Made by a program: the position numbers and the translations under genes. Under the pieces are notes generated by a model that saw only the letters and a list, made by a program, of their open reading frames with translations, was not told where the DNA came from and made no database searches. This document shows, piece by piece, positions 3,006-23,139 of a stretch of 32,000 nucleotides of DNA (position 1 is the stretch's first letter; every line of letters starts with the position of its first letter). The stretch lies in the NCBI RefSeq assembly GCF_001598795.1, contig NZ_BCZP01000024.1, forward strand, positions 1-32,000, in the 5' to 3' direction. Source of the DNA: Delftia acidovorans NBRC 14950. Lineage in GTDB: Bacteria > Pseudomonadota > Gammaproteobacteria > Burkholderiales > Burkholderiaceae_C.

Positions 3006-3009
3006 TGAA

Positions 3010-3257: not shown

Positions 3258-6200
3258 ATGCCCCAGACCACCCAAAGCGCCGCCGATGGCGGCGTTGACC
3301 TGTTCGAGATTGCCGGTATCAATCCCACGGCGAAGACGGCAACCCAGGCCCCGACCGGCGACGTTGACCTGTTCGAGCTGGGCGGTATCTCCATCGATGT
3401 GCCAAAGCCCAAGCCACAGGGCATTGGCGGCTATGTGGCCGATGCCATCACCGACGTGTTCAAGCGCGCGGGCGGCGCCGCTCTCTCTGGCGTGGCTGCC
3501 GTGCCCGAGGCCGCCCAGTCGGGCGTCCGCGCCACGGTGCGCAGCGGCGCCGGCGGCGACCCCGCCACGGTCATGCCCGGCGGCGCCTTCATCCCAAGCA
3601 TTGACACAGACGAGGCCATCAACGGCCCGATGACGCAGCAGCAGCTCGACCGCCGCGAGCTGCAGGCCGAGCGCGCGGCCGTTGGCGTGCGCCTGCCGGG
3701 CGCGGAGGCGCTGGCACGCGCGGGCCGCGATACGCAGAAGGCCATCAACGACACTAACAGCCAAGCCACGCAGCATGCGGTGGCCAATTCCCAGATCACG
3801 GGCAATCTGCTCAAGGGCGAGATCGACTTCGGCAAAGACCCGTCTGTGCGCGGCTTCCTGATGCAGGGCGCAGACGTGTTCGGCAGCATGTTCCCCGTAG
3901 TGGCCACGGCGCTGGCCACACGCAGCCCGGGCGCGGCCGGCGCGGTGGGCGGCGCCATGGCAGCGGGCGAGGGCGTAGAGAACGCGCGGGAGTTCATCGC
4001 CAAGCAGTCGCACGAGCAGCTGCTGGACACCAGCCCGCTGTATCGCCGCATGGTCGATGCCGGCGCGCAGCCCGACGAAGCGCGGCGGATCACCAGCGCC
4101 AAGGCCGAGGATGCCTCGGCGCTGCTGCAGGGCGCGGTGGCCACGTTCGGCGACCGCTTCACCGGCAAGCTGGTGACGGGCGGACTCGACCCGCTGCTGG
4201 CCCGCGTGGCCGGCCGCTCGGTGCTGGGCAAGACTGCGGCCGGCGCGGGCATCTCGGCGCTGGAGGAGGGCACGCAGGAGCTGATGGAAGGCGTGGCCTC
4301 GGACCTGGGCACCAAGAGCGTTGCCCACGGCAAGGAAATCGGCGAGGACTCGGCCGCCAACTTCGTGCTGGGCGCGCTGGGCGGATCAGCACCAGGTGCT
4401 GCCCGGGGCGTGGTGGCCGGCGTGAAGGATCGGGGCGCCAAGGCGGATGCCGGCGGGCGCAGCACGGTCATCGACGTGACCTACAAGGACGCCGAAGGCA
4501 ACACGGTCACGGACGTGGCCACGACCGCAGACGCTTACCCAGGTGACGGCGCTGCAGCTGCGCCTGTGCAAGACGCCCAGGCCTCGGCGCCTGTCTCGGC
4601 GCCGGCCGCGCCGCAGACGGAACAGCAGCGCGTGCAGCAGCCCGATGGCACGCCCGAAACCATGGACAGCACCACGGCTGCCACGCGCCTGGCCGAGCTG
4701 GAGGTGATCGACAGCACCACGGGCCTGAACCCGGTGCAGCAGGAGGAGCGTGCAGCACTGGCCCAGCGCCTGGAGCAGGACGCGGCGCGCGAGGCCGAGC
4801 TGGAAGCCCTGGGCGATGAGCCCCAGGCCGTGGCCGCCGAAGCTGCTGCGGACGAACAGGCCCCGGCGTTTGATCCGGGTGCAGTGCGGTCCAAGACCTG
4901 GCCCCAGTTTGTGCACGAGCGCGGCGAGAAGGTGGCCACCCTGCGCCGGGGCACGCCCATCTGGGACCAGCTGCAGCACGAATGGGCCGCAGTGAAGACG
5001 CGCCGCGCCGGCACCAACCCCGAGGGCACGGGCGCCGCCGGCACGCCGGCCCAGGAGATCCAGAACCGCGACCGCAGCCGGCCTGCCAGCGTGGTGCAGA
5101 TGCAGGGCATGGCCCAGAACCCCGACTACCTGCGGCTGGGCGTCTCGCGCAGCCCAGAGTCTGGCGCGCCCATGGTGTTCGCCGTGGGCGACCAGGCCGA
5201 CGCCGTGCAGGCGCTGGGTCGGGCCGACGTGGCCGTGATGAGCGATGGCCAGCGCGTGCCGTTCCGCTATGGCGTGATGGAGGCGGCCGACGTGCAGCCG
5301 TCCAACTTCGCGGACGGCGCCGTCAATCCGCTGTTCGACGCAGCGCACCCGGGCACGGTCAAGGCCTTGAACAACGGCCGCGTGGCAGGCCTGCGCGCTG
5401 CCTACGAGCGCGGCACGGCCGACGCCTACCGGCAGGAGCTGGCCGCCGACAGCGACATGCACGGCATCGACCCGGCCGCCATCGCCGGCATGCATGCCCC
5501 GGTGTTGGTGCGCCTGTACTCCGAGAAGGACAACCAGGTCAACATGGGCGCCAAGAGCCAAAGCCAGGCCTTGGGCCTGTCCGCCACGGAGCAGGCCGCC
5601 ACCGATGCGGCACTGGTGGACGGCGGCGTGCTGGAAGTGTTCGACAGCGGCGCCCTGGACAGTGCGGCAAACCGCGACTTTGCCCGCGCCTTCATCGGCA
5701 AGCTGCAGGAGCAGGGCCAGGACGTGGCCGGCATGGTGGACGCCAATGGCGCGCTCTCACCGGCCGGCGTCACCCGCCTGCAGGCGGCCCTTGTGCACAA
5801 GGCCTACGGCGACGGCGACCTGGTTGAATCGCTGTTCGGCTCCACCGACAACGACATCCGCGCCATTGGCGAATCCCTCAAAGCCGTGGCTGGCGAATGG
5901 GCAAACCTGCGCCTGGCGGCCGAGCGCGGCGCCATCAATGCCGAGGTGGACGTGACCGAGAACCTGCTGCAGGCCATCCGCCTGGTGCAGAAGGCCCGGC
6001 GCGAGCGCGCGGCCCTGCACGACGCTGTGCAGCAGGTGGACATGCTGACGGGCGACGTGCCCGATGCCCTGACCGTGGGCATGCTGCGCCTGCTGTACAG
6101 CGGCCATTACCTGACCCGGCCCGTGGGCCGCGACCGCCTGGTGGAGTCCCTGCGCGCATACATGGGCGCTGCCTTAGCGACCTCGGCCAGCGGTGATATG

Positions 6201-9200
6201 TTCGGCGAGCAGGTAGGCCCTGCCGCAATCCTTGCTGCCCTGAGCGGCCAACCCGTCCCAAAGCGACAACAGACCAATGACACAAGCACCGACTCCCAGC
6301 AAGCCCCAGCCCCGCAAGGCAGCCGAGAACCCCCTGGCAGCGATGCTGCTGGGCAGCGTGCTGATGCAGCAGGGCCAGAAGCACAGCGACAAGAGCCAGA
6401 CGGAGCAGGGCGAGCAGCTGCTGGAGATCGCGCAGAACGCCCAGGGCAAGATGCCGACGCCGACAGCGGCGCCGTAGCGCCCGCGCTGGAGCTTTCCAGC
6501 TACACCCCCGAAGAAATCCAAGCCCAGCAGGCCCAGCAGCAGGAGGCCGAGCAGCGCCGTGCGCGCGACGATGCCAAGGCAGATGCGGACGCGCGGGCCG
6601 AGCGCGAGCGCAAGGAAGTGGCCGAGCGCCAGACTGCCAGCGCCGAGCACTTCCAGCTGGGCCAGGATGCGAACGACTCGCTGAGCGGGCAGAAAGGCAT
6701 CTTCGATGCGCCGGCCGAAGCCGAGCCGGCCCAGCGCCACGATCTGGAGGCCATGTTCGACGAGGTGCTGGACGAGGTGGTCACGGAGCGCCAGGCCTCG
6801 CCCCGCTCCGGTGACTCGGTGCCGCACGGCAAGGCCTTGACGCAGGAGGCCGCCCAGGCTGCAGCCCAGGACTACCTGCGCTGGCTCGGCGCAAAGGCGC
6901 CCGGGGATGTGCGCCCCGGCATCCATGGCGGCTACACCTTCGAGGGCGGCCCCGGTGCCGTGCGCGTGAAGGCCGGGCACATCAAGGTGGACGGTCAGGA
7001 CCGCCTGCAGTTCCCGATTCAGCGTCTGCTCAAGCTGGCTGACCCGGCCAAGCCCAAGCCGCGCGGCCAGGCCGCCCAGAAGGCCGCCGGACAGGAAGCC
7101 GCGCGGGCGGCCTATTTCACGCCGGACAACATCGTCCGAAGCCAAGACGGCAGCCACGATCGCGTTGTCTCGTACACGGCACCCGATGCGGATGGCCGCT
7201 GGAGCGTCACCGTGCGTCCCGTGGAAAAGGAAGGCAATTCATGGGTGGATGTGCCAGGTCTGCGCGAGCGCACCCACGGCACGCAGCCCGATACCCGTGC
7301 ATTGAAGGCCGGCCCGGTCGCTCAGGCGCAGCCCGAGCGCGGCGCCGGTGAGGCACTGGCCAGCGCAGCCAAGAATGCCGGCGCGGGCCTGGCCGCCGCC
7401 ATCGATGGGCTGGGCGAGCTGTTCGGCGGCGCGGGCAAGCTCGGCTCAGGCCTGTCCTTCGATGAGCAGACATACGCCAAGGCCAAGCCGCTGTTTGCCC
7501 AGGCCGTGGCCAACCTGCAGGTCGCCGGCACTGACCTGCGCGATGCCATGCGGGCCGTGGTGCGCATGGTCGTAGACAAGTTCGGCGCCGAGGCGGCCGT
7601 ACGAATGAAGCCGTATGTTGTGCGCTACATCGAGGAAATGCGCGACAAGCATGCCGCATTCCCCGAAAATACCTCCAACGGAAAGGACACCTCCCATGTA
7701 TCAGGCTCCGCTGCCCATCTGGAACGAAATCGCCCGGAGTCAGCCGGTGCTCCCTCCGATGCTTCCCTCGATGCGCGAACTGTTCAGCGCGACACCCGAG
7801 ACTCTGCCAGCGCTGATCGACAAGCACCTGGACAAGCCGGCCGAGGCGATGGGGCTGGACACTCCGACGACGCTGGCTTTTCGGCTGGTGATGCCGCTGT
7901 TTATGGAAAACGAAGCGATCAGCGCATTCATCGAGGCGAAAGGCCAACCGCAGCTTCGCAGCTGCTTGCCGGAACTGACAACGGTCAGGGAGTGTCTGGA
8001 GCTGGCCGCACTGGAATACCGGCTCGACCAGTCACAACTGGCCAGCTTGCAGCGATCACTCGTGCAGCACGCGCAGCGGCTCGAAACCGAAGCGATAGCA
8101 GCAATGAACGCAGCGCAGAACGCGCAGTAGGTCCGGCGGTTGCGCCCAGCGCGGGCGAGGCCGCGCACCTGGCCAAGGGCGAGCAGCCGGCCCGCGCGCA
8201 TCGGCAGATCGACCTGACCGACGCGAGCAGCGTGGAGGAGCTTTTCGAGCGGCTGGAACACCTGGACCTGCCCACACGCACCAAGCCTCGGCAGGCCGCT
8301 GCAGCTGCTGGACCAGCGCCTGTAGGCGCCCAGCCGGCCACGGTGCCCAGCACGGCCACCCCACAGGCCCAGCCCGCGCCGGCCCAGCTGGCTACGGGGG
8401 AGCCCGGCTCCCTGAGTGGCCAGCTGCAGCGCGACGGGCGCCCGCTGGTGCCGCACACGACCAAGGGCGGCAAGCCGCTGCAGGGCATCGTCATGCAGGG
8501 CGTGGACCGGGACACGGCCATGCTCTACGACCCATACACCTTCAAGAAGGACGGCGGGTATTTCATCCGGGCCAAGCACCTGGCGCGCGAGGGCGTGGGA
8601 TTCCGGCGCGGTGAGAGCGCCGTGGCGCCGGCCATGACGGCCGACCTGGCGCAGGAGCTGCTGCGCATTGCCGGCAGCACGGCGCCTGCCGGTGGACGTG
8701 GAGCCCAGCAGGCGCCCATGGCGCGCGCGCAGAAAGTCGTGGACGAGGTGCGCAAGGCCTGGGCCAACGCGCCGCGCATCAACGTGGTGTTCGACCTGCA
8801 AGACCCGCGCGTGCCCCAGGAAGCGCGCGACACGGAGCGGCTGCAGGCGGCCGAGGGTGCAGAGGGAGTGCCCAAGGGCTTCTACTTCGATGGCGAGGTC
8901 TACCTGGTGGCGAGCCAGCTGGCCACGCCAGAGGAAGCGACCCGCGTGCTCTTCCACGAGGCGCTGGGCCACCACGGGCTGCGTGGTGCCTTTGGCGAGA
9001 AGCTGGACGCGGTGCTGGACCAGATCATCGTGGCCCGCCCGCGCGAGGTGCGCGCCAAGCTGCAGGAGTATGGCGAGCTGGACGACCTGGTGGGCCGGCG
9101 CTACGCGGCCGAGGAGGTGCTGGCCGAGATGGCCGAGATGCAGCCGCATCTGGGATTCGTGCGCCGCGCCGTGGCAGCCATCCGCGCCTGGCTGCGCGCC

Positions 9201-12200
9201 CATGTGCCCGCGCTGCGCGACCTGGCCATGACGGACGCGGAGATCATCCGCGACTTCATCCTGCCGGCGCGCCGCTGGGTGGAGCGTGGCGCTCTGGCTG
9301 CCGCTTCCGCGCCGGCAGCAAAACCTGCGTTCAGCCTGGACAGCGGTGCGGGCCGTCGCGCGCTGCAGGAACTGTCCGAGCTGGACGACCTGTTCACGTT
9401 CCCGAAGTCGCAACAGAAGGACCTGGCTGCCATCGCAAAGGAGCACAACCCCGAAATTCAGGTGAGCAAGCCCATCAGCATTGCAGGGCGCCAGGAGTAC
9501 ACGCTGACCATGCCGGGTGGCAAGAAGGCCATCCTGTCGGTGCGCCAGCCCAACCCGTATGGCGGCGAGCAGGTCTACGACATGCTCTACACCGCCGAGG
9601 GCATGGAGGCCGTGACCGGCCGGCCCGGTGTGAACCCCGAGGACGTGCCGCCCACGCCCGACGTATGGCTGGACGTGTCCCGGCTGGACCAGGGCGATGC
9701 CGGTGCAATGGCCTACAGCATCGCCTCGACCTTTGCCCACAACACAGACAGCATTTTCATCGGCGACCCGCACGGCCTGAGCAAGACCGCGCTGCGCCGC
9801 CGGCTGGAGCAGATGCTGTCCAGCGCCTTGAAGTTCGGCACCACGCGCCACCTGGCGCCGCATCCCGACCAGGTGCGCGGCGGCCATGGTGTGCCGGGCC
9901 TGCGATGGGTCTATGGGGATGACGTGGGCAATGTGGAGCGCATGATTGCGGCGAGCTTGGAGGGAATGGATAATGCATTTCCTTCATCCAATCAGATTGC
10001 ATACGATGCCGAACGAGGCACTTTCCGACTATCCGATTCCGGGCAGCAACTATCAAGACAGCAATTGGCTGGCTTGGTTGGACAATCCATCGAAAGAAGA
10101 CGTCGAATGGATGCAAGCGCGCCAGGAGACGCGGAAGCTGGCTGGCGAACAGTTGCGCGAGCGGCTGTCTGGCGTTCCCTTCTACGCGGAGAGGGCAGCT
10201 CGGGTGAAGGCAATCGACGGGGACGAGGCGCTGTACTGGGAAGGTTTGCTGAGCGGCACGCACAAGTTCTAGGCGACCCCAGTCCCAAGCTGCGCGTTTT
10301 CTACAGCCGCGGCCCCGCTGCCGGCGCGGCCACGCCGGCACCCTCAAAGGGCCTGCTGGGCCGCCTGCAGGACAAGGTGGCGGACCTCACCGGCTACCGC
10401 TCCGTCGATGACTTCCTCTACGCTTGGCAGGACAAGTTCATTGACCTCAAGCGCATCCAGGAACATATCAAGGCCCTGAACGGCACCGTCAGCGAGACGA
10501 ACGACGCGTACAGGGGCGAGGAGCTGTACCACAAGCGCGTGGCCAAGCGCACGGCAAACTTCCTGCGCGACGAAGTGCAGCCGCTGCTACGGCGCCTGAA
10601 CGCCACGGGCGTGGCCATCGAGGAGCTGGAGCGCTTCCTGCACGCCCGGCACGCGCCCGAAGCCAACCGCGTCATGGCCGAGCGCAACCCTGGCGCCCAG
10701 CAGCTGCAGGCGCAGCGCGATGGCGCCGCCAAGACCGTGGAAGATCTGCGCCGCCAGCTGCAGCGCGCTCAGGCCCGGGGCATGGCCACCGGCCCGGTGC
10801 AGAAGGCGCTGGGGCAGGCCCTCATCGACCAGGACCGCTGGGACGGCGCGGAGGCCTTCACAGGCACCGAGGACGAGCGCCTGTCCCTGTCGGGCATGAG
10901 CGATGCCGAGGCAGCGGCGGTGATGGCCAGCTACAGCCCGGAGCAGCGCCAGGTGCTGGACGAGCTGGCTGCGCGTGTGGACCGGATGAACGAAGGCACG
11001 CTGCAGACACTGGAGAGCTACGGCCTCATGGACCAGGCCACGCTGACGGCCTGGCGCAAAACCTACCGGCACTACGTGCCCCTGCACCGTGACGAAGCCC
11101 ACCCGGAGAGCAAGGCTCACCCCATTGGCCAGGGATTCAGCACCAAGGGCGATGCGGCCAAGAAGCGCACGGGCTCAAACGAGCGCGTGACCAACATCCT
11201 GAGCCACATCGTCATGCAGCGAGAGGCGGCATTGACGCGCGGCGAAAAGAACAACGTGGTCAAGCGCCTGTACCTGCTGGCCGCCCAGAACCCGGACAAA
11301 GATCTGTGGAGCCTGGAACTGCCCAAGAAAAAGGCGCTGGACCCTGATACCGGCCTGGTGCGCACAATGGTGGACCACGCGGCGAAGCTGCGCGCCAATG
11401 TCGTGTCGGTGCGGATCGGCGGCAAAGACCAGTACATCGTGTTCAACGAGCGCAACGAGAAGGCCGTGCGCCTGGCCATGGCCATGAAGAACATGGACGC
11501 CATGGAGCTGGACAGGTTCACGCGGGGCGCGGCCTGGATCACGCGCTGGTTCGCATCCGTCAACACTCAGTACAACCCGGTGTTCGGCGTCATGAACCTG
11601 GCGCGCGACCTGCAGGGCGCCATGCTGCAGCTGTCCACTACCCCCTTGGCCGGCAAACAGGCAGAGGTCTTCCGCAACATCCGGCGCAACACGCGCGCGA
11701 TCTACAAGGATCTGCGCCGCGAGCGTCGAGAGGAGGGCATCGGCACGAGCGAATGGGCCAAGCTGTGGGAGCAGCTGCAGCTGGACGGCGGCACCACGGG
11801 CTACCGTGACCTGCACGCCGATCCCCAGGACCGGGCCAAGAAGCTGCAGAAGGCGCTGGACCAGGTGGGCGAGGGCAAGGTGGTCGGCAGCGGCCGGGCG
11901 CTGCTGGCCTGGCTGTCGGACTTCAATGAAACCCTGGAAGCAACCACGCGCCTCGGCGTCTACAAGGCTGCGCTGGACCAGGGCATTAGCCGCCAGGAGG
12001 CCGCGAGCATCGCCAAGAACATCACGGTGAACTTCAACCGTAAGGGCCGGAATATGCCCGTGGCCGGCGCGCACTTCGCTTTTCTGAATGCGGCAATCCA
12101 GGGCAACAAGCGCATGCTGGAGACGCTGGCGGGGCCGGCCGGCCGCAAGATCATGATGGGCGGGGTGGCCCTGGGCATGGTGTCGGCCATGGCCGGCTAC

Positions 12201-13169
12201 CTGATGATGGGCGGCGGGGATGGTGCAGACGACGAGTGGAAGAAGATCCCGGGCTTTGTGAAAGAGCGGTCCATCATCATTCCGCTGGGCCGGCAGGACT
12301 ATGTGGCCACCCCGCTGCCGCTGGGGTTCCATGTGTTCCCCAACATCGGCCGCACCATCGTGGAGATGGCCGTGCACGACGACCCGACAAAGAGCCGAAT
12401 GGGTCACGTCCTGGACATGGCCGTGCTGGCCATGGATGCCTACAACCCGCTGGGCGGCTCTTCAAACCTGGGGCAGTTGGTGTCCCCCACCTGGCTCGAT
12501 CCCACAGTGGCGCTGTGGCAAAACCAGGACTGGACGGGCCGAGAGATCTACCGTGAAGACCGCAGCTCCAAGGACCCTAAGCCTGGCGATGCTCGGGCCA
12601 AGGATGCGGCTCCAGCTCCCTACAGGGTGATGGCCAGGACTGTGAACGCTATCAGCGGCGGCAACGAGTGGCGACCGGGCGAGTTCAGCCCCACGCCCGA
12701 GGCCATCGAGTACCTGTTCGGGCAGATCACCGGGGGCGTGGGCCGCGAAGCGTCCAAGGTCGCCAGCATGGCAACAGCGGCCTGGACGGGGGAGGAGTTG
12801 GCCGCGCACCAGCTCGTCCTGGTCGGCCGGGTCTATGGCAACTCGCGCGGTGTGAACGGGCAGAGCGCTGGCTACTACGAGAACGTCAAGCGCATCAACG
12901 TCAGTATGGCCGAGGCCAAGGGGCGCGTGGAGCGCGGGGAGGAGGCCGATGCTGTGTTGCTGGACGTGCCACTGGCTCAACTGGACGGTGCCGCATCCCT
13001 GGTGGACAAGCACATTTCCAACCTGGTGAAGGCGCGGCGCCGCGTGCATGCCAGCGACGATCCGAACAAGCGCGAGTTGGTCAAGTCGATCAATCAGGAG
13101 ATTGAACTCTCAATGCGGCAGTTGAACCAGGGGGTTGAGGATGTGCTTGGCAATTTCGGGGGGCGATGA
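3258..13169 (+). CDS. Giant 3303-aa multidomain protein, tentatively a phage/conjugative-element 'polyvalent' or virion-injected type with a C-terminal membrane-inserting region
   Basis: Uninterrupted 9,912-nt ORF in frame 3. ATG 3258 has GAGG 8 nt upstream. GC3 is very high over most of its length. Duplicated N-terminal G(G/D)VDLFE(I/L)xGI motif (15-bp GTTGACCTGTTCGAG twice, ~3293 and ~3362). Around aa 600-720 (...NNGRVAGLRAAYERG..., nt ~5370) it recalls ParB/ddrB-ParB-like domains, from memory only. FHEALGHHG metal-site-like motif at nt 8955-8975 has HExxxH spacing, not canonical HExxH. Q/A/E/R-rich linkers. Hydrophobic helices near aa 2964 (KIMMGGVALGMVSAMAGYLMMGG). Three stretches lose the frame-3 codon signature (see nested ORFs). 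Confidence 0.75.
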   Translation: MPQTTQSAADGGVDLFEIAGINPTAKTATQAPTGDVDLFELGGISIDVPKPKPQGIGGYVADAITDVFKRAGGAALSGVAAVPEAAQSGVRATVRSGAGGDPATVMPGGAFIPSIDTDEAINGPMTQQQLDRRELQAERAAVGVRLPGAEALARAGRDTQKAINDTNSQATQHAVANSQITGNLLKGEIDFGKDPSVRGFLMQGADVFGSMFPVVATALATRSPGAAGAVGGAMAAGEGVENAREFIAKQSHEQLLDTSPLYRRMVDAGAQPDEARRITSAKAEDASALLQGAVATFGDRFTGKLVTGGLDPLLARVAGRSVLGKTAAGAGISALEEGTQELMEGVASDLGTKSVAHGKEIGEDSAANFVLGALGGSAPGAARGVVAGVKDRGAKADAGGRSTVIDVTYKDAEGNTVTDVATTADAYPGDGAAAAPVQDAQASAPVSAPAAPQTEQQRVQQPDGTPETMDSTTAATRLAELEVIDSTTGLNPVQQEERAALAQRLEQDAAREAELEALGDEPQAVAAEAAADEQAPAFDPGAVRSKTWPQFVHERGEKVATLRRGTPIWDQLQHEWAAVKTRRAGTNPEGTGAAGTPAQEIQNRDRSRPASVVQMQGMAQNPDYLRLGVSRSPESGAPMVFAVGDQADAVQALGRADVAVMSDGQRVPFRYGVMEAADVQPSNFADGAVNPLFDAAHPGTVKALNNGRVAGLRAAYERGTADAYRQELAADSDMHGIDPAAIAGMHAPVLVRLYSEKDNQVNMGAKSQSQALGLSATEQAATDAALVDGGVLEVFDSGALDSAANRDFARAFIGKLQEQGQDVAGMVDANGALSPAGVTRLQAALVHKAYGDGDLVESLFGSTDNDIRAIGESLKAVAGEWANLRLAAERGAINAEVDVTENLLQAIRLVQKARRERAALHDAVQQVDMLTGDVPDALTVGMLRLLYSGHYLTRPVGRDRLVESLRAYMGAALATSASGDMFGEQVGPAAILAALSGQPVPKRQQTNDTSTDSQQAPAPQGSREPPGSDAAGQRADAAGPEAQRQEPDGAGRAAAGDRAERPGQDADADSGAVAPALELSSYTPEEIQAQQAQQQEAEQRRARDDAKADADARAERERKEVAERQTASAEHFQLGQDANDSLSGQKGIFDAPAEAEPAQRHDLEAMFDEVLDEVVTERQASPRSGDSVPHGKALTQEAAQAAAQDYLRWLGAKAPGDVRPGIHGGYTFEGGPGAVRVKAGHIKVDGQDRLQFPIQRLLKLADPAKPKPRGQAAQKAAGQEAARAAYFTPDNIVRSQDGSHDRVVSYTAPDADGRWSVTVRPVEKEGNSWVDVPGLRERTHGTQPDTRALKAGPVAQAQPERGAGEALASAAKNAGAGLAAAIDGLGELFGGAGKLGSGLSFDEQTYAKAKPLFAQAVANLQVAGTDLRDAMRAVVRMVVDKFGAEAAVRMKPYVVRYIEEMRDKHAAFPENTSNGKDTSHVSGSAAHLERNRPESAGAPSDASLDARTVQRDTRDSASADRQAPGQAGRGDGAGHSDDAGFSAGDAAVYGKRSDQRIHRGERPTAASQLLAGTDNGQGVSGAGRTGIPARPVTTGQLAAITRAARAAARNRSDSSNERSAERAVGPAVAPSAGEAAHLAKGEQPARAHRQIDLTDASSVEELFERLEHLDLPTRTKPRQAAAAAGPAPVGAQPATVPSTATPQAQPAPAQLATGEPGSLSGQLQRDGRPLVPHTTKGGKPLQGIVMQGVDRDTAMLYDPYTFKKDGGYFIRAKHLAREGVGFRRGESAVAPAMTADLAQELLRIAGSTAPAGGRGAQQAPMARAQKVVDEVRKAWANAPRINVVFDLQDPRVPQEARDTERLQAAEGAEGVPKGFYFDGEVYLVASQLATPEEATRVLFHEALGHHGLRGAFGEKLDAVLDQIIVARPREVRAKLQEYGELDDLVGRRYAAEEVLAEMAEMQPHLGFVRRAVAAIRAWLRAHVPALRDLAMTDAEIIRDFILPARRWVERGALAAASAPAAKPAFSLDSGAGRRALQELSELDDLFTFPKSQQKDLAAIAKEHNPEIQVSKPISIAGRQEYTLTMPGGKKAILSVRQPNPYGGEQVYDMLYTAEGMEAVTGRPGVNPEDVPPTPDVWLDVSRLDQGDAGAMAYSIASTFAHNTDSIFIGDPHGLSKTALRRRLEQMLSSALKFGTTRHLAPHPDQVRGGHGVPGLRWVYGDDVGNVERMIAASLEGMDNAFPSSNQIAYDAERGTFRLSDSGQQLSRQQLAGLVGQSIERRRRMDASAPGDAEAGWRTVARAAVWRSLLRGEGSSGEGNRRGRGAVLGRFAERHAQVLGDPSPKLRVFYSRGPAAGAATPAPSKGLLGRLQDKVADLTGYRSVDDFLYAWQDKFIDLKRIQEHIKALNGTVSETNDAYRGEELYHKRVAKRTANFLRDEVQPLLRRLNATGVAIEELERFLHARHAPEANRVMAERNPGAQQLQAQRDGAAKTVEDLRRQLQRAQARGMATGPVQKALGQALIDQDRWDGAEAFTGTEDERLSLSGMSDAEAAAVMASYSPEQRQVLDELAARVDRMNEGTLQTLESYGLMDQATLTAWRKTYRHYVPLHRDEAHPESKAHPIGQGFSTKGDAAKKRTGSNERVTNILSHIVMQREAALTRGEKNNVVKRLYLLAAQNPDKDLWSLELPKKKALDPDTGLVRTMVDHAAKLRANVVSVRIGGKDQYIVFNERNEKAVRLAMAMKNMDAMELDRFTRGAAWITRWFASVNTQYNPVFGVMNLARDLQGAMLQLSTTPLAGKQAEVFRNIRRNTRAIYKDLRRERREEGIGTSEWAKLWEQLQLDGGTTGYRDLHADPQDRAKKLQKALDQVGEGKVVGSGRALLAWLSDFNETLEATTRLGVYKAALDQGISRQEAASIAKNITVNFNRKGRNMPVAGAHFAFLNAAIQGNKRMLETLAGPAGRKIMMGGVALGMVSAMAGYLMMGGGDGADDEWKKIPGFVKERSIIIPLGRQDYVATPLPLGFHVFPNIGRTIVEMAVHDDPTKSRMGHVLDMAVLAMDAYNPLGGSSNLGQLVSPTWLDPTVALWQNQDWTGREIYREDRSSKDPKPGDARAKDAAPAPYRVMARTVNAISGGNEWRPGEFSPTPEAIEYLFGQITGGVGREASKVASMATAAWTGEELAAHQLVLVGRVYGNSRGVNGQSAGYYENVKRINVSMAEAKGRVERGEEADAVLLDVPLAQLDGAASLVDKHISNLVKARRRVHASDDPNKRELVKSINQEIELSMRQLNQGVEDVLGNFGGR
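6277..6477 (+). CDS. Nested +1-frame ORF E1 (66 aa: MTQAPTPSKPQPRKAAENPLAAMLLGSVLMQQGQKHSDKSQTEQGEQLLEIAQNAQGKMPTPTAAP)
   Basis: Frame-1 ORF inside the giant frame-3 ORF. Hand-counted GC3 is ~87% in frame 1, while frame 3 falls to about half. It ends in TAG and frame-3 GC3 resumes immediately after. There is no clear SD, so it is the weakest of the three. Confidence 0.4.
   Translation: MTQAPTPSKPQPRKAAENPLAAMLLGSVLMQQGQKHSDKSQTEQGEQLLEIAQNAQGKMPTPTAAP
7696..8130 (+). CDS. Nested +1-frame ORF E2 (144 aa, helical/acidic: MYQAPLPIWNEIARSQPVLPPMLPSMRELF...)
   Basis: ATG 7696 has AAGGA (7683-7687) 8 nt upstream. GC3 is ~76% in frame 1 versus ~45% in frame 3 by hand count. The protein composition looks natural, whereas frame 3 reads as R/S/G/A/D low complexity. 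Ends in TAG (8128-8130). Confidence 0.55.
   Translation: MYQAPLPIWNEIARSQPVLPPMLPSMRELFSATPETLPALIDKHLDKPAEAMGLDTPTTLAFRLVMPLFMENEAISAFIEAKGQPQLRSCLPELTTVRECLELAALEYRLDQSQLASLQRSLVQHAQRLETEAIAAMNAAQNAQ
9973..10272 (+). CDS. Nested +1-frame ORF E3 (99 aa: MHFLHPIRLHTMPNEALSDYPIPGSNYQDSNWLAWLDNPSKEDVEWMQ...)
   Basis: ATG 9973 has GGAGGG (9959-9964) 8 nt upstream; an alternative ATG is at 10006. GC3 is ~71% in frame 1 versus ~45% in frame 3. Local GC dips to ~55%. Ends in TAG (10270-10272). Confidence 0.5.
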   Translation: MHFLHPIRLHTMPNEALSDYPIPGSNYQDSNWLAWLDNPSKEDVEWMQARQETRKLAGEQLRERLSGVPFYAERAARVKAIDGDEALYWEGLLSGTHKF

Positions 13170-13336
13170 TGAAAAGGGTACGGTTCTTCTGGTGTGCAAC
13201 TGCTGCCGTCCTATTGTGGTCTTTTGGGTGCCTTCGTGTAGGGTCTACTTTGCAGGGGAAACCACCGTTGCCTGCTCCGGCTGAACTGACGCCAGATACC
13301 GCATTACGGTCGCCAACACGCTCGGACAAGGGATGA
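13166..13336 (+). CDS. Small (56 aa) signal-peptide or possible lipoprotein ORF (MMKRVRFFWCATAAVLLWSFGC|LRVGSTLQGKPPLPAPAELTPD...)
   Basis: ATG 13166 overlaps the giant ORF stop (13167-13169, ATGA). N-terminal basic plus hydrophobic segment ending SFGC, a non-canonical lipobox. The mature part is Pro-rich. It is below the 60-aa ORF-track cutoff and GC3 is only ~50%, so coding is uncertain. Confidence 0.35.
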   Translation: MMKRVRFFWCATAAVLLWSFGCLRVGSTLQGKPPLPAPAELTPDTALRSPTRSDKG

Positions 13337-13516
13337 AGGCGCAACAGGTTCCAGAGGTGCCAGTCAAGGATTCGTGTCGACGTGGATCTAGTTTGTCGTC
13401 GAGATCTCTCCGATCAATAGATTAGGATGTACCTTCTCTCGAAGGGAAGATTCCTGGTACTCTCCAATCGGAGAATCACGAGTGCATCAAACTGGGCTGT
13501 AAAAATCTATGTGAAT

Positions 13517-13546
13517 TTGTTAGAGGGCGGCAGCTTGCTCTAAAAT
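13517..13546 (+). promoter_or_regulatory. Candidate sigma70 promoter for the helicase-nuclease gene (-35 TTGTTA, 18-nt spacer, -10 TAAAAT)
   Basis: Hexamers at 13517-13522 and 13541-13546, about 29 nt upstream of the ATG at 13575. The ATG has a strong SD (GGGAGAAGG). Pattern match only. Confidence 0.3.
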
Positions 13547-13574
13547 TGCACACATTAAAGGGAGAAGGCGTCTT

Positions 13575-16097
13575 ATGGTTGATTTCAGTAAAAAGCTTGC
13601 AAGCAAGAAGGTCTCAAAAGTATCGGACCCCATTGAGCTATATAAAGGTCTTGATCGGGCCAGCGACAAGGGTCCACTTCGTCCTTCTCAGGATGCGATA
13701 TTTCGAGAGTGGAATGCGACCGGTCGCAATCAGCGCGACGTCATCGTCAAGCTGCACACCGGCCAAGGCAAGACGCTGGTTGGGCTTCTGATGCTGCAGG
13801 CCCGCCTGAACGAAGGAAAAGGTCCGTCCGTCTACCTTTGCCCGAACAACTACCTCATTGAACAGACCTGTGAGCAAGCGCGTCAGTTCGGAATTGCAAC
13901 GTGCCAAGCAGAACCTGATCTGCCCGAGGCGTTCCTCACAAGCGAGCAGATCCTTGTGACATCGGTGCAAAAACTCTTCAACGGCTTGACGAAATTTGGC
14001 CTTGAACGCAACTCAGTTTCTGTCGGGACTCTCCTGATGGACGATGCTCACGCGTGCGCAGATACGATCCGTGATCAATGCAAGATCCGTATCGATACCA
14101 GTGAACCAGCGTACCAAGCGCTCCGAACCTTGTTCGCTGCCGAGCTTGAACTACAAGGCGTTGGTACTTACGCTGACATCTGTAATGGGAAACAAGATGC
14201 GCTGCTGCCGGTTCCCTATTGGGTCTGGCGTGATCGCGAGTCCGACGTTGCAGCGATCCTGTCGGCAGCATCTGACCGAAGGAGCGTCAAATTCGCATGG
14301 CCGCTCTTGCGCAATATGCTCGCACACTGTCAGTGCGTTGTGTCCGGAACCTCGATCGAGATTGAGCCGCATATCGCACCGCTTCAATCTTTCGGAAGCT
14401 ACTGGAAGGCGGAGCATCGGATTTTCATGTCTGCCACGGTGACTGACGATGCATTCCTGATCAAAGGGCTTCGGCTGCAGCCATCGACGATCGTTGCTCC
14501 ACTTCTTTACTCTCAAGAAAGTTGGTCCGGCGAGAAGATGGTGCTGCTGCCTTCTGTCATCAATCCGCTGTTGGATCGTGAAGCGATCGTCGCTAAATTC
14601 GCTCCCAAGGATGCGCGTCGCCACTATGGCGTTGTGAGCCTCGCGACCTCTTTCAAGAACACAGCTGATTGGGAGACCTACGGTGCAAAGGTGGCAAAAA
14701 CGGAAACTGTGTGGACGGACATTAACGCATTGCGTAAGGGAAACTACGAGCAGACGCTGGTGCTGGTCAATCGCTACGACGGCATTGATTTGCCAGACGA
14801 TGCCTGCCGAATTTTGGTGATCGATGGAAAGCCCTACTCCGAGAGTCTGATAGATCTTTATCAAGAGGACTGCCGCCCGGCGAGCGACACTACCCTAATG
14901 CGTCTGGTTCGAAACATTGAGCAGGGCATGGGGCGAAGCGTGCGAGGCGAGAAAGACTATTCTGTGATTCTTGGAATCGGCGCTGATCTCACTCGGGCGC
15001 TCCGAGACCAGCATTCGCGAAGCTACCTATCGTCCCAGATGGCGACACAGATCGAGATCGGCATTGAGGTGGCTGGGTTCGCGAAAGATGATATTGCCAA
15101 TGGAGCCGATGCTGAGACGGCGTTCTTCGGCCTCATCCGTCAGTGCTTGGGTCGGGATGAGGGCTGGAAGGCGTTCTATGCCGAGTACATGGAGAAGGTT
15201 GAACTGAGAGGCGCCAATAAGCGGCTGCTCGGTATATACGCTGCTGAGCTTGAGGCTGAAGAGCTGTTTATGGCTGGAGACTACAGTGGTGCGGTGCAGC
15301 GCATTCAGAAGTTGATGGACGAACAAAATTTCGATGCGCCTGATCGTGGATGGTATCTCCAAACCATGGCGCGATACAGCTATCCGCTCGATCGGGCAGA
15401 GTTCAAGCGCCTGCAATTGGCTGCGCACGGAGCCAATCGCATAGTGATGAAGCCACCACAAGGTCTGAAGGTCACGAAACTTTCAGTGGTGAGTCAGGGA
15501 CGCGTTGAGCGAATAGCCCAATGGATTCGCAACCACAACGATTACGCCGAACTTGACATTGCGTTGGCGGACATTCTCGGACGTCTTGTATTCGGCGTGA
15601 AGGCGGACAAGTTTGAACAGGCGCTTGATGAGCTGAGCCGGGCGCTGGGCTTTGCTGGCGAGCGGCCCGACAAGGAATGGAAGGAGGGTCCAGACAACCT
15701 TTGGGCGCTGGATGACGCTAACTATATCGTCTGGGAATGCAAGAACGAGGTCGATCTGAGCAGGTCGGAGATCAATAAGACTGAGGCCGAGCAGATGAAC
15801 CGTTCCGCGGCATGGTTCCGGAAACACTACGAGGGATGCACTGCCATCCACATTGAGGTGCACCCCGCGTACCAGGTACAGAGTGCTGCCAACTTCTTGG
15901 TAGACGTAAAGGTGATGCGAGAGAAGGAGTTGAAGACGTTTGTGAAGGCTGTGAAGAAGTTTTTCCAGTCATTTCAGCGCCTCAATCTCAAGGACTTGTC
16001 TCTGCCGCACATCCAGAATCTCCTTGTCGAGAATGGATTGGACGTTGACAACCTGCTCAATGGAAGCTTTATGAGGAAGACCGTTGACCTAAAGTGA
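13575..16097 (+). CDS. SF2 (DEAD/DEAH-type) helicase fused to a C-terminal PD-(D/E)xK nuclease-like domain; candidate Hna-like single-gene anti-phage protein
   Basis: 840-aa ORF with strong SD. Motif I HTGQGKT (13755-13775), motif II DDAH (14040-14051), motif III SAT (14430-14438). C-terminal helicase lobe ...[26 protein letters not shown]... and motif VI-like [11 protein letters not shown]. Nuclease core ...ALDD(15711-15716)ANYIVW-ECK(15735-15743). About 52% GC, lower than the flanking core. Confidence 0.85.
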
Positions 16098-16452
16098 CCC
16101 ATTATGACCGAGCAGCCTTCGATTTCGGAGGCGCTGCTTGTTTGGATGTTGTGCGGTTGCGCCAATTGCAACCGACGAATAGCTGGCGATAATTGCAGCT
16201 AATAATCAGCCTACCGGTGGGGAGTGAATTTGATTGCGCCTGTAGCAGGCATCCTGAGTGGATGCTCAATGACTGCTCCTGGCCGATCTTCGAGGCTCGC
16301 TGCTGCTCCCAGAGCTAGGACGCCAGCCTCGTAGAGACTGTTAGGCGTGTTCCAGCAGCTTAAACGGCCGCATGACGGACGGTGTGAGTCTCGGCCCCTG
16401 TGCTATGACCAAAAACTGTCCAGAATACGCAGCAATAGGGTGAAAAAGGCAA

Positions 16453-16712
16453 GATTTCGAAAACACCGGAAGCGTGGCTATCGCTGCAAGTTGTTAATCG
16501 GAAAGGTGTTTTCTCTCATGCCTATTTCGGTGGATCGGACTTTTAATCCGTTGGTTGCGGCTCCCTGGGCAGGTTGTATTCCCAGACGGGTCTATGCGCC
16601 TTTCTGTTCAAAGGCTTCCGGGCTTGGTAGGGCCTCCATCACCGGTCGGTACATGCAGACACCCGGATCTACGCACCATTAGAAGCACAACTGAGCCAGC
16701 GATGCTGCAAAG
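16453..16712 (+). repeat. Copy 1 of a ~255-bp diverged direct repeat, possibly a structured RNA, containing a tRNA-Lys-like anticodon arm
   Basis: Aligns with 23140-23392 in the same orientation. Conserved blocks are GATTTCGAAAAYAC, GCGTGGCTATCGCTGCA, ATTTCGGTGGATCGGACTTTTAATCYGTTGG (30/31 identical), TCAAAGGCTTC and GAAGCACA. Between blocks, different sequences form hairpins at equivalent places. A possible closing helix ATCGCTG (16480-16486)/CAGCGAT (16697-16703) is kept in copy 2 with a G-U. Confidence 0.55.
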
Positions 16713-17702
16713 TTGCTACGGAGGGTCGGGGGTATTCCTCTAAGTTGCTGTCAGATAATGATTTTCTTCAAATATCAATCCAGTCCATCATGGGCGCAAC
16801 GGACATGCGCCACATGCTGGCAGGTGCTTGATTTTCTACGTTTTTCATTGATCTGATTGGGTTTTTTGCTCTGGCGGCTGCTCTTGGTTTTACGCCGTGG
16901 AACCCCGCTTTTCCTATTGTTCCAGCTCTGGGTGCTACAGATTGGGCTTGTGGCGTGCAATAGGAGCCATCACTGCACGCAAGTCGAAAGGTTCTGACCA
17001 GCGAATGGTTGCACCGGCGGGGGTACGAGCTGCAGCAGGGGCGTGCTTCAGGCCGGGCTCTGCACAAGAAGGTCTCAGTGGGGAGCTGCCGCGGAATTAT
17101 GTCAGCGCGGCCGAAAACGTGACTGAGTGGGGTCGTAGCAAAAGGTGGACTTCGCGCCGGCCGGCCTCCGGCCTGGCCCGGCTTCAAGCGGCCAGGCCCA
17201 TGAGTGGCGCGACGAAGGCCAATGGAAGAGCACCGTGGCGGCTGCTCGGGTAGCCAGCAGGAAGGTGTTGATGCAGACCGGGACTGTCAAGGCAGCCAGC
17301 AGTCTGCCTATCCCGGCCACCAAGGCGAGTAGCGAGGCGGCTGCAGGTGCGGTTACAGGTGCGGTTACAGGGCAGCACCTGATCGGCCGCGAGACCGGCG
17401 CGGATCTTCGAATACGTGAGCCTGAGTTGCAGGCCTTGCATGCCTGGCACGCAAGCATAGTGGTGCTTGCAAAAGCCGGAGGCATTCCAGCATCAAACTC
17501 CAGCATGCACATTACTCACATATCGCGTCCAGCTTGCTTCTGGATAGTTTGAGTTTTGGAAAAAAGAAGTGCGTTAGATAAATTTGATCTTCAGTCATTG
17601 CGGATTGTTGAAAAAATTCTATTTTTCCGGATGCATTTTGTGGCAAGTTCTACATGTGCTTTGAGCATTGCATCATGTATTTAACCAGTTGAGGCAAATT
17701 GA

Positions 17703-19010
17703 ATGAATGACATGAGGAAACAAGACTCATTCTCGCCCCAATCGCGCTTGCAAGCATTGCTGGCGGACCCTGGGATGGAGGATTTTTCAGGGTTAAACCT
17801 ATTGCTTGAGCAAGCCGGGTATGAACTGAGTTGGGTGGCGAGCGAATCTGATGTGCAGAATTTGCTCGAAAGGAAGCATGTTGATTTGCTTATATGCAAC
17901 ACGCGGCTGCTTGACGTGGACGACGGAAGGTGGATGGAAGAATTGATTGTCCAATCGTGCAATATTTCCGTGATTATTTTGGATGAAGGCGGGAGAGGGA
18001 ACGCTAGGGGAGGTATTGGGCGTTTATTGGGATTGTGCCGTCATATTATCAGCCCATGGGATAGCGATCAATTTTTGGCGACTATTGAACAGTTGAATGA
18101 GCAAAGGATTTCACGCCACGAAAATATTCGCCTCGAACAGAGAAATCGGACGCTGGTGAAAGAGTTGAGTGAACTCAGTTCGAAGCTGGAGAATGCTGCG
18201 CACGAGCATGACGACGAGCTTCTGGAAGCACATAGAAAGCTCAAGAGGAGTTTCGTGGCGACAATCCGGATGTTCTCGAATCTTCTGGAGTGGCGAGGAG
18301 GGGCGCTTGCCGGCCATTCTCGACGCGTGGCCGACCTGACTCGGCGAACGGCAAATATCATGCAGCTTGACGAAGGTGAGCAGCAAAATGCCTTTGTCGC
18401 TGCGTTGATTCATGATATTGCACACATAACGCTGCCCGACGGGTTGTTGAATAAATCAGTGACCAGCTTAAGCCATGAAGAGCTGGAGAAATATCGAACC
18501 CACTCCAGCTTGGGAGAACAACTGCTCCTGTCAATAGATGACGCACATGGGGTTGCCACTTTGGTCAGAGGCCATCATGAACGTTTCGATGGCGCAGGTT
18601 ACCCGGATGGGCTGAAAGGGGGAAATATTCCAGTAGGTGCGCGAATAATCGCAGTCGCAGATTGTTATGATGACCTGACAATAGGACATTTGAACGGTAA
18701 ATCTCTCACTCCGGCAGAGGCAAGAACCATAATATCCCATGGCAGGGGTACGCAATTCGACCCTGAGGTAGTCGATGCATTCTTGCAGATTCTGCTGCAG
18801 GCAACGCCCGCTGTTGATCCTGCACCATTTTATATTCGCTGTTCAGATCTCAAGCCTGGAATGGTCTTGGCCCAGGATTTTATGTCTGGAGAGGGTTTGG
18901 TTTTACTCACTGCAGGTCGGGTTTTGACTGAGGAGTTGATTCACAGAATACAACTACGTGTTCATCTTGGACGCAAGTTGCCGGTTCGTGCCATGACGGT
19001 GGCCGCATGA
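17703..19010 (+). CDS. HD-GYP domain protein (putative c-di-GMP phosphodiesterase) with a degenerate receiver-like N-terminus
   Basis: 435-aa ORF with GAGG 9 nt upstream of the ATG. HD motif HDIAH (18411-18425) and GHHERFDGAGYPDGL (from 18570). The N-terminal CheY-like segment lacks the acidic pocket and phospho-acceptor Asp (ADPG...; DLLICNTRL). About 45% GC. Confidence 0.85.
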   Translation: MNDMRKQDSFSPQSRLQALLADPGMEDFSGLNLLLEQAGYELSWVASESDVQNLLERKHVDLLICNTRLLDVDDGRWMEELIVQSCNISVIILDEGGRGNARGGIGRLLGLCRHIISPWDSDQFLATIEQLNEQRISRHENIRLEQRNRTLVKELSELSSKLENAAHEHDDELLEAHRKLKRSFVATIRMFSNLLEWRGGALAGHSRRVADLTRRTANIMQLDEGEQQNAFVAALIHDIAHITLPDGLLNKSVTSLSHEELEKYRTHSSLGEQLLLSIDDAHGVATLVRGHHERFDGAGYPDGLKGGNIPVGARIIAVADCYDDLTIGHLNGKSLTPAEARTIISHGRGTQFDPEVVDAFLQILLQATPAVDPAPFYIRCSDLKPGMVLAQDFMSGEGLVLLTAGRVLTEELIHRIQLRVHLGRKLPVRAMTVAA

Positions 19011-19381: not shown

Positions 19382-19859
19382 ATGTCTCTTTCAGTTGGGG
19401 ATTTTATCATTGGGGCTCATTGTGTTTTTGAGCGCAACCAGATTCTATGTTGATGATTATTCTTTTGTGCAGGCGAGACAAAAATTGACAGAGTTTGGAA
19501 ACCATTCATTTATTTGATAATGAGTTTTCAAAATCAGCCCATGGCGTGAGTTGTGGTGCCATCGATATCCAGGAAGAGGGCGACGACGATACGGACACCT
19601 CTTGCACCACCAAGGGCAAAGCCGGACACCAGCATGCCTGCCGGGCCCGCGGCCACCGCCGCTGCGACGGTACGCCTCCTGAACCAAGAAGTGCAAAACG
19701 TGTTTGTAAAAACAGAAGTGATAGTTTGCATGCTAAATGCAACCGACTTCTTGATAAGTTTCTTTAATGAAGTGCGTTTTGTTTCAGTTGACAATGTTTG
19801 ATACTTTTTTGAGTCGGATCCACGTCAGGTGGGTCTCGGCCTTACCGGAGCCTCCCCTG

Positions 19860-20582
19860 ATGAATTTTTCAATTTCCCGCTGGCTGAGCGCAGCAGGTGT
19901 TGCGCTTTTACTGTGCTCCAACGCCGCAGCTCAGTGGTCCTACCCTCCAGGTAGTTCCTTGGTCGTTCCCCCTGGCGGTTCTGTTGACCTGTCCTGCTCC
20001 TCGTTGGACATGCAAGGGACCCTGGATCTCGGGGGGGCGCTGACTGTGGATTCTTCAGCAACCTTTGGAAGCACGGCAGCCATCACCAGCAGCGGCGGAA
20101 CGCTGTCCGTGGGCGGTGACCTGCACATCAATGGGTCGCTGAATGCAGGGAACAACACGATAGAGCTGCGCGATGGGTGCGACCCAGGCAACACGAGCCA
20201 GCTGAGCGGAACACTCGTGGTGCAGAACCTGACCATCAAGAGCACGAGTGGGCGCACTTTCGTTCTTCCCGTCGGGGCCAACATTACCGTGCTCGGCACT
20301 CTGACCATTGAGGGCGTGCCTGGCCAGCCGGTGGTACTGCAGGCGGCCAGCGGCACGGCCGTCATCAACCTTGGCCCTGGAGCGACGGTAGTGCGTGGCA
20401 ATGCCACCGTGCCAGCGAATGTGCAGATCGGCGCGCCGGTTTCCACAGCCGCCATTCCGACCTTGAGCGAGTACGGGCTGATGCTTCTTTCCCTGCTGAT
20501 GTCCATCGCTGTTTGGGTGCAGCGCAAGCGGTCGTCGGCTCCACGGCGCGATGCACGCGCAATCTGCAAGACATCTTTTTGA
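19860..20582 (+). CDS. Secreted repeat-rich (beta-helix-like) protein with an IPTL-CTERM sorting signal
   Basis: ATG 19860 has GGAG ~10 nt upstream (the ORF track opens at 19767). Signal peptide MNFSISRWLSAAGVALLLCSNAAAQ. C-terminus IPTLSEYGLMLLSLLMSIAVWVQRKR (IPTL at 20454-20465) gives motif, TM helix and basic cluster, as in the IPTL-CTERM family. Confidence 0.8.
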   Translation: MNFSISRWLSAAGVALLLCSNAAAQWSYPPGSSLVVPPGGSVDLSCSSLDMQGTLDLGGALTVDSSATFGSTAAITSSGGTLSVGGDLHINGSLNAGNNTIELRDGCDPGNTSQLSGTLVVQNLTIKSTSGRTFVLPVGANITVLGTLTIEGVPGQPVVLQAASGTAVINLGPGATVVRGNATVPANVQIGAPVSTAAIPTLSEYGLMLLSLLMSIAVWVQRKRSSAPRRDARAICKTSF

Positions 20583-20603
20583 ACCTTTGCGATTTCCTGA
20601 ATC

Positions 20604-21749: not shown

Positions 21750-21761
21750 TACGCAGCTGTA

Positions 21762-21784
21762 TGAGCAGCTTGCTGAAAGCTGCT
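21762..21784 (+). terminator. 9-bp hairpin (GAGCAGCTT-gctga-AAGCTGCTC) just after collagen-like gene 1; no U-tract
   Basis: Perfect stem 13 nt downstream of the stop. Without a T-run, the terminator assignment is weak. Confidence 0.3.
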
Positions 21785-21911
21785 CGTGGCTCTACTCCCG
21801 TCCCGTTGATGGGCTTGAATGAGCCCGCGGTTCTATGTGAAGGATATGGCGGCAAAACCAAGCCGGCGTTGGCCGGCGCTCCGCAACGCCGATGACACAA
21901 CATTCACGACC

Positions 21912-22896: not shown

Positions 22897-23139
22897 TTGT
22901 GTGGATTTGTGGCCTAAGGAATAGTATTTTTGATAAAAAAATGCCAGAGAGAGGAAATGGCCTGCGGGTATCTGAGGAAAGATGAAGTGGTGAAATAGAT
23001 GTGTCCCGGGTTCGGGTCTATACATTTCTACCGAGGGCTTGCAGAAGAGCTTTCCAACGCTGAGTGCAAGACTACCAACCAGACCATCCACTTTGACAAA
23101 AATCTGTCCAAAGTAGGTAGAAGTCGAGGGCAAATGCAT

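Follow-up and report, generated by a model that had tools for sequence, protein, structure and literature searches.

A predicted Hna orthologue carried in an exchangeable cargo slot of a dusA-integrated prophage of Delftia

The window analysed here is a stretch of 32,000 nucleotides from Delftia acidovorans NBRC 14950 (contig NZ_BCZP01000024.1, positions 1 to 32,000), which maps to a scaffold of GCA_000741825.1. Unless another molecule is named, coordinates refer to this window and amino acid numbers to the 840-residue protein that is its main subject. The gene in question, here termed hna, is an uninterrupted open reading frame (ORF) at 13575..16097 on the forward strand, which has an ATG start and 840 codons and encodes an intact protein. 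On the strength of its sequence and predicted fold, this protein is identified as an orthologue of the anti-phage protein Hna, composed of a DinG/XPD-like superfamily 2 (SF2) helicase core with two lobes (HEL1 and HEL2), a helical linker and a C-terminal PD-(D/E)xK nuclease. Hna was first found in Sinorhizobium meliloti, as a helicase-nuclease that provides abortive infection with a single protein. A protein identical to that of the window is present in several independent assemblies, and proteins encoded on its flanks fall into clusters with names from Delftia acidovorans and D. tsuruhatensis. The gene is carried as cargo by a prophage that is integrated in dusA, and the reading in which it encodes an Hna orthologue acting in this setting by the mechanism already published for Hna is held here with a probability of about 0.85. 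Family membership, intactness, purifying selection and prophage cargo context are established by the analysis described below.

Three independent lines of evidence, namely a sequence match in the Protein Data Bank (PDB), a match to a defence profile and a structural match, identify the protein as Hna. A phmmer search against all PDB chains matched a single distinct sequence, that of 10uj_A/9ykj/9yhn (845 amino acids), with ~1160 bits over residues 1-830 of the query and 1-836 of the target. The depositing paper identifies 10UJ and 9YKJ as S. meliloti Hna in monomeric and dimeric form, respectively (PMC13381803). The identity between the two proteins amounts to 506/830 residues (61%) and is distributed rather evenly, at 54-66% per segment. 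Within PADLOC, PDC-S28 is matched over the whole profile (E = 8.9e-302), with the model PDLC04986 giving 1001 bits over profile positions 1-822 of 831. The two PDC-S28 models score the Delftia protein at 1001.4 and 404.5 bits, compared with 1013.5 and 398.8 bits for S. meliloti Hna, and a published comparison of annotation tools found that PADLOC PDC-S28 and DefenseFinder Hna land on the same B. cereus proteins. The third line is provided by an AlphaFold model built with 28 homologues (mean predicted local distance difference test score 81.4, predicted template-modelling score 0.66). When this model was compared with the PDB using Foldseek, the Hna monomer 9yhn was the top match (E = 4e-98, TM-score 0.75-0.77) and was followed by XPD, DinG and CasDinG, at E ~1e-13 and 11-14% identity. 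An earlier, sequence-only reading of this DNA had named Hna as the protein that this domain layout resembled, whilst allowing for a separate family. The call proved correct, and a family distinct from Hna is ruled out by the full-length PDB and PADLOC matches. It follows that neither the family nor the likely mechanism is new, as Hna has already been characterised and structurally solved.

The helicase motifs picked out in that reading are all present in the forward-strand ORF. Motif I (Walker A), GQGKT, lies at 13761..13775 (aa 63-67, including K66), motif II, DDAH, at 14040..14051 (aa 156-159) and motif III, SAT, at 14430..14438 (aa 286-288), whilst a further motif stretch at 14922..14948 (aa 450-458) contains GRSVRG (aa 453-458). 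The first lobe is covered by a ResIII/DEAD match in Pfam (aa 34-171), and the last motif stretch falls within a match to Helicase_C_2, the DinG/XPD-type second lobe (aa 394-466). The middle helical region that had been postulated between HEL2 and the nuclease is recovered in the AlphaFold secondary structure as an all-helical segment of seven helices (aa 487-620; 15033..15434, forward strand). Similarly, the proposed D...ECK nuclease core is found as P706-D707 ... E721-C-K723 (15690..15743, forward strand), equivalent to P712/D713/E727/K729 of Hna. Every position that was mutated in the Hna study has its equivalent in the Delftia protein, with R36, Q39, D31 and P34 unchanged and the four nuclease residues corresponding to P706/D707/E721/K723. 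In a MAFFT alignment of 127 homologues, K66, D156, D157, H159, S286-A-T288, the motif VI residues, P706, D707, E721 and K723 are invariant, as are R36 and Q39, which coordinate ATP in Hna. K723 is the counterpart of K729, whose exchange for alanine (K729A) renders Hna nuclease-dead (PMC13381803). A four-Cys Fe-S cluster between motifs I and II is absent, only C89 being invariant in that interval across the 127 homologues, and in this the protein agrees with Hna, described as a DinG-like core without an Fe-S cluster (PMC13381803). Comparison with a 91%-identical copy from Rhodoferax gives a dN/dS of 0.047 at a dS of ~1, which indicates that the gene is under strong purifying selection.

Hna has been described as a Mg2+/Mn2+-dependent 3'-5' exonuclease that acts on single-stranded DNA and 3' overhangs and is inactive on double-stranded DNA, 5' overhangs and RNA (PMC13381803). 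Binding of ATP, rather than its hydrolysis, drives assembly into an auto-inhibited, HEL1-mediated homodimer in which the nuclease domain is disordered, and the ATPase and nuclease sites compete in a kinetic partitioning (PMC13381803). The single-stranded DNA-binding protein (SSB) of a phage breaks this dimer and unleashes the nuclease, leading to abortive infection, and phage mutants that escape carry altered SSBs (PMC13381803). As all residues of known importance are conserved, the published mechanism can with fairly high confidence be assigned to the protein from Delftia; its enzymatic activities, auto-inhibition by ATP, SSB trigger and abortive outcome would then be those reported in the literature. 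In an uninfected cell, ATP bound to the DinG/XPD-like SF2 core would maintain an auto-inhibited, HEL1-joined homodimer in which the C-terminal nuclease is disengaged. The SSB of an infecting phage would compete at the dimer interface and free the monomers, whose PD-(D/E)xK domain, using Mg2+ or Mn2+, would digest, in the 3'-5' direction, DNA that has free single-stranded 3' ends. Phage replication would consequently halt and the cell would die or arrest, with no progeny released. Most likely, the cassette that carries the gene protects the lysogen, and with it the prophage, against other phages.

The same properties could suit a different target, as incoming conjugative or plasmid DNA might be attacked besides phages or instead of them, its free 3' single-stranded end and plasmid-encoded SSBs triggering the exonuclease. 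This proposal is reasoned from the published substrate (3' ends of single-stranded DNA) and trigger (a foreign SSB), and the published model of Hna does mention degradation of host plasmids (PMC13381803). However, all published Hna phenotypes are anti-phage and nothing in the locus points specifically to plasmids, which makes a plasmid target highly improbable. Defence against phages by the published mechanism accordingly remains the preferred reading of the gene.

The element around hna is a prophage. Its last structural-side gene before the cargo slot (3258..13169, forward strand; ~68% GC) encodes a large polyvalent protein of 3,303 amino acids, which contains the Pfam domains ddrB-ParB (its residues 599-753), LPD37 (2135-2311) and LPD38 (2991-3186), together with a HEALGHH zinc-protease-like motif. 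For this protein, phrog_14770 is matched at E = 0, and 160 relatives were found in IMG/VR, most of them on contigs of ~40-65 kb, where in many cases no other gene separates it from the contig end. Further upstream, beyond the window, are tail genes of the phage (Phage_tail_APC, Phage_Tail_Tip/PB4_spike and tail assembly). An integrative and conjugative element, as suggested by the ddrB-ParB and LPD domains, is ruled out by the tail-tip, PB4-spike and tail-assembly genes, the PHROG matches and the IMG/VR relatives of ~55 kb. The gene had been placed directly after a prophage-like or conjugative module; the prophage part of this description stands, but the conjugative part does not, and neither does a position outside the element, as hna is cargo within it.

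The right end of the prophage is defined by Delftia genomes in which the site is empty (L028, L030 and L031). These align to the window only from 16779 rightward, which sets the junction at 16778/16779, a point that in the empty-site genomes lies ~70 nt inside a minus-strand gene. The disrupted gene is dusA, its product being assigned to DusA by the NCBIfam equivalog NF008774 (533 bits, with a cut-off of 269), and in the empty-site genomes it is intact and adjoins an HD-GYP gene. The genome CP022656.1 belongs to one such empty-site strain. In the window, the junction is followed by the orphaned original 5' end of dusA (16779..16848, minus strand; codons 1-23, MKNVENQAPASMWRMSVAPMMDW) and preceded by a conserved right arm of the prophage (16392..16778), which is common to the prophage-bearing Delftia L029 and absent from the three empty-site genomes. 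The opposite prophage end, with the integrase and a restored dusA, is outside the window. Integration at the 5' end of dusA by elements with a dusA-specific integrase has been described (PMC4482086), and the junction observed here fits that description. A tRNA integration site was also considered and discarded, as the window contains no tRNA genes and the target is dusA. Contig breaks had suggested an element boundary at ~17.1 kb, which is ruled out by the junction in the empty-site genomes. These breaks occur in three independent Logan assemblies, where contigs on the Hna side end at 17125-17132 and contigs on the HD-GYP side start at 17103-17289, depending on the sample. A short repeat and strain heterogeneity are candidate causes of the breaks at 17103-17132.

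Comparison with the related prophage of L029, which occupies the same site in another Delftia, delimits the cargo. Its blastn similarity to the window ends at 13136 and resumes at 16392, with IPTL-CTERM and collagen-like genes between these points in place of Hna, so that 13137..16391 (forward strand; 53.7% GC) represents a discrete Hna cassette, specific to this prophage variant, in an exchangeable slot. The slot lies beside the attachment site, with hna 681 bp inside the junction between prophage end and chromosome. Two viral contigs, L048 and L065, lose their similarity to the window at 13129 and 13172, respectively. In L048, which is 95% identical, an integrase follows at a distance of 1.1 kb downstream, whilst in L065, where the C-terminus of the polyvalent protein is 89% identical, a dusA-like attachment segment and then an integrase are found past the gene that occupies the place of hna. 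This gene (L065 8318-11146, forward strand) encodes a protein of 942 amino acids that combines a calcineurin-like metallophosphoesterase at the N-terminus with an nSTAND_NTPase5 domain, and partial matches to the PADLOC 'Effector endonuclease' and PDC-S60 models make it a candidate single-gene STAND defence protein. The copy of hna in Rhodoferax shares only window positions 13550-16102, essentially the gene alone, which underlines the movement of hna as a single unit. No partner gene was found in the flanks of the cassette (13137 to the hna start and the hna stop to 16391), which contain only unsupported ORFs of at most 56 amino acids. One of these, a 56-codon ORF at 13166-13336 (forward strand), overlaps the stop of the polyvalent gene with its start (ATGATGA) and has an N-terminus resembling a lipoprotein signal (…AAVLLWSFGC…). 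It is absent from the gene-caller output and has no PHROG match, and it could encode a small lipoprotein of the exclusion type or not be a gene at all.

The composition of hna also differs from that of its carrier, at 53.9% GC overall and 62.4% at third codon positions, as opposed to 68.2% and 82.2% for the giant gene upstream. Chromosomal DNA in the right part of the window has a GC content of ~67%, but the region immediately downstream (16-19.5 kb) is likewise GC-poor (0.46-0.58). The earlier statement that the gene, with an estimated ~52% GC, differs from both neighbours is therefore true of the upstream side only.

Residence in a prophage raises the question of whether the protein serves the life cycle of the phage itself, as a helicase-nuclease for replication, recombination or repair, rather than defence. 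In keeping with a phage function, its match at E 8e-117 is to phrog_16128, a phage protein family whose function is unknown, and an alignment-based scan identified 13 IMG/VR viral contigs that encode full-length relatives; together with the INPHARED result given below, these two observations indicate that prophage carriage of Hna is uncommon but not new. Nevertheless, Hna is absent from all 80 loci that were fetched from phages with the polyvalent protein in common, and in close relatives the slot holds the STAND-NTPase gene, surface-protein genes or nothing. In GC content the gene falls 14 points short of the prophage genes, and no homologue was found in the complete phage genomes of INPHARED, where the sole match was a 501-kb Salmonella contig that is not a phage genome. 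Furthermore, most homologues are chromosomal or plasmid-borne and stand beside defence genes, and the orthologue that has been characterised serves in host defence. A function in the phage's own life cycle is, for these reasons, very unlikely, and the gene is best regarded as defence cargo.

The wider family is large, with more than 4,000 clusters at 90% identity (E <= 1e-10) among the candidates scored. Almost all of the best 120 listed homologues are 839-845 amino acids long and, where they have names, these are generic ('DEAD/DEAH box helicase', 'replicative superfamily II helicase'). The family has representatives among Beta-, Gamma- and Alphaproteobacteria as well as in Planctomycetes and cable bacteria, with a patchy distribution. 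A homologue in Polaromonas is accompanied by a type III methyltransferase/ResIII pair, one on a Rhizobium plasmid by an AAA-ATPase and UvrD-helicase pair, and one in another lineage by an integrase, LmuB_C/MC3/CTD7 genes and a PIN gene. The flanks of eight further homologues, with 97 ORFs, gave PADLOC matches that include PtuA, GajA, methyltransferases of types II and III, components of MADS and an effector of the SAVED-HNH kind, whilst the Pfam matches there were to integrases, DDE transposases, STAND/NACHT NTPases and a recombination directionality factor. Overall, the defence neighbours include restriction-modification, Lamassu, Septu, Gabija-like, MADS and STAND systems. No repair operon recurs among the neighbourhoods examined, and the homologues are accordingly associated with defence and mobility genes rather than with housekeeping repair operons. 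In Acidovorax (L015), a co-oriented HTH_3 regulator, AAA ATPase and 818-residue S8 peptidase (5821-9967) end 34 bp before the start of the Hna homologue and may constitute another defence module. In a gammaproteobacterial metagenome-assembled genome (L012), the homologue is broken up into a pair of ORFs that overlap, of 375 and 488 amino acids (10001-12530), and represents either a frameshifted pseudogene or an assembly error.

The family-level thresholds for DinG and XPD proteins were failed by the Delftia protein, which scored 18 bits for NCBIfam dinG_rel (cut-off 548) and 12 bits for rad3 (cut-off 247). PADLOC typeIV_DinG was matched at E 1e-10, with the best stretch confined to aa 402-466, and there are no cas genes within the window. 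A housekeeping DNA-repair helicase of DinG/XPD type with an attached nuclease is hence very unlikely: it would account for the Helicase_C_2 and DinG-type profile matches and for XPD, DinG and CasDinG being the next structural neighbours after Hna, but these similarities are at superfamily level only, the four-Cys Fe-S cluster is lacking, and the gene is missing from otherwise syntenic Delftia genomes and is patchily distributed in variable neighbourhoods.

Several points nonetheless weigh against a simple transfer of the published mechanism to this gene. Within the HEL1 dimer-interface loop, D31 and P34 are conserved, but position 30 is serine here and threonine in S. meliloti Hna, whilst across the family it is mostly histidine (H in 93, S in 27 and A in 4 of 127). 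In addition, a 6-residue loop just after W46 is missing from the protein. Taken together, S30 and the missing loop suggest that regulation or trigger specificity may differ. A single SSB trigger is known, for S. meliloti Hna only, and orthologues are expected to differ in what they recognise (PMC13381803). The expression signals of hna are weak predictions. Within the 405-bp gap upstream of the gene, sequence patterns on the forward strand reveal a putative promoter, TTGTTA-18-TAAAAT (13517..13546), and a purine-rich tract resembling a Shine-Dalgarno sequence, AAGGGAGAAGG (13558..13568), and a weak terminator-like hairpin (16115..16132) lies 18 bp past the stop codon. As promoter-like sites (2 found, 2.6 expected) and terminator-like sites (3 found, 4.8 expected) are no more numerous than in shuffled sequence, these signals constitute weak evidence and are plausible rather than demonstrated. 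The gene had been described as monocistronic with its own promoter and Shine-Dalgarno sequence; the layout is plausible and the tract is present, but the promoter is unsupported in the comparison with shuffled sequence. Finally, an Hna borne by a prophage must somehow tolerate the replication of its own phage.

In a slot beside the phage attachment site of a temperate phage, Hna may conceivably serve mainly as a phage-against-phage weapon, although this idea is tentative. If the carrier phage replicates despite its own Hna, then either its resident SSB or replication strategy does not trigger the protein or it encodes a dedicated anti-Hna factor. If this idea is correct, the locus would be a natural matched pair of Hna with a non-triggering SSB or an inhibitor. 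With such a pair, it could be worked out what is recognised by Hna, and co-evolution of Hna alleles with phage SSBs, as markers of self and non-self among temperate phages, could come to light.

The window contains a number of other features. A direct repeat of ~305 bp and 71% identity is present in the prophage right arm (16403-16709) and in the chromosome (23091-23394), with near-perfect cores GCGTGGCTATCGCTGCA and TATTTCGGTGGATCGGACTTTTAATC. The chromosomal copy lies directly downstream of a cluster (19767-22847, forward strand) that encodes a protein with an IPTL-CTERM sorting signal and two collagen-repeat proteins, the second of which carries BclA_C, an exosporium-like trimerisation domain. 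This cluster is found in all Delftia genomes compared, with products of variable length (381 and 147 amino acids; 342 and 288, 311 or 345 amino acids). In the L029 prophage, the copy of the repeat follows a phage-borne paralogue of the cluster. As the repeat trails both clusters, it appears to be a shared 3' flank of the IPTL-CTERM/collagen module and a possible recombination substrate. No Rfam match was obtained anywhere in the window, the repeat included, and a sigma-54 promoter in the repeat core TGGCTATCGCTGCA was rejected because the spacing between GG and GC is two bases short of the consensus. The HD-GYP gene beyond dusA (17703-19010, forward strand) encodes a response-regulator cyclic di-GMP phosphodiesterase with the Pfam domain HD_5 and a NosR-family match below cut-off. 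It has a GC content of 50%, yet is chromosomal and conserved beside dusA in prophage-free Delftia. Within the prophage, between the tail genes and the polyvalent gene, two ORFs at 116-1708 (forward strand) and 1725-3005 (minus strand) have no match in Pfam, PADLOC or PHROGs. The second, of 426 amino acids, falls in the GC trough of the window (~39-47% in a 1-kb profile), which is very atypical for a genome of ~67% GC, and it may be another acquired moron or a defence candidate.

As the label Hna/PDC-S28 would be given to this gene by any up-to-date pipeline for defence annotation, the scientific weight of the identification itself is small, beyond confirming the call of the earlier reading. 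The locus does, however, provide a clean case of a single-gene Hna cassette in a swappable slot by the attachment site of a dusA-integrating prophage, and a 61%-identical orthologue for the comparative work on trigger specificity that has been called for by the structural paper (PMC13381803). The remaining interest resides in the clean swap of cargo and in how a temperate phage coexists with the SSB-triggered suicide nuclease that it carries.

The closest known system is S. meliloti Hna (SMa2245, on pSymA), with which the Delftia protein shares its length (840 and 845 amino acids), the order HEL1-HEL2-NUC, 61% identity along the whole length, every SF2 motif and the PD...ExK residues, the lack of an Fe-S cluster, a single-gene organisation and practically the same PDC-S28 scores. 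The two differ in genomic setting, a symbiotic megaplasmid in S. meliloti and a prophage cargo slot in Delftia, a betaproteobacterium, and in the exchange of T30 for serine and the absence of the loop that follows W46; regulation of the NolR type is specific to the S. meliloti host. PADLOC PDC-S28 shows no substantive difference from Hna, the two names being equivalent. DinG, XPD and CasDinG resemble the protein in the fold of the helicase core, the Helicase_C_2 region and a reduced Arch-like insertion, but are only 11-14% identical to it, and it lacks both an Fe-S cluster and a type IV CRISPR context. The nuclease of ExoDinG proteins is an N-terminal DnaQ-like domain, in contrast to the C-terminal PD-(D/E)xK nuclease of the Delftia protein. 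ExoDinG proteins are also 3'-5' exonucleases on single-stranded DNA (PMC13381803). More distantly, the two-component systems Hachiman (HamAB) and Gabija (GajAB) and the single-protein system Nhi likewise link a nuclease effector to a sensor that is a helicase or an ATPase. These systems employ other domain families and a different subunit organisation, and the PADLOC models of Hachiman, Gabija and Nhi do not match the 840-residue protein even at E <= 1.

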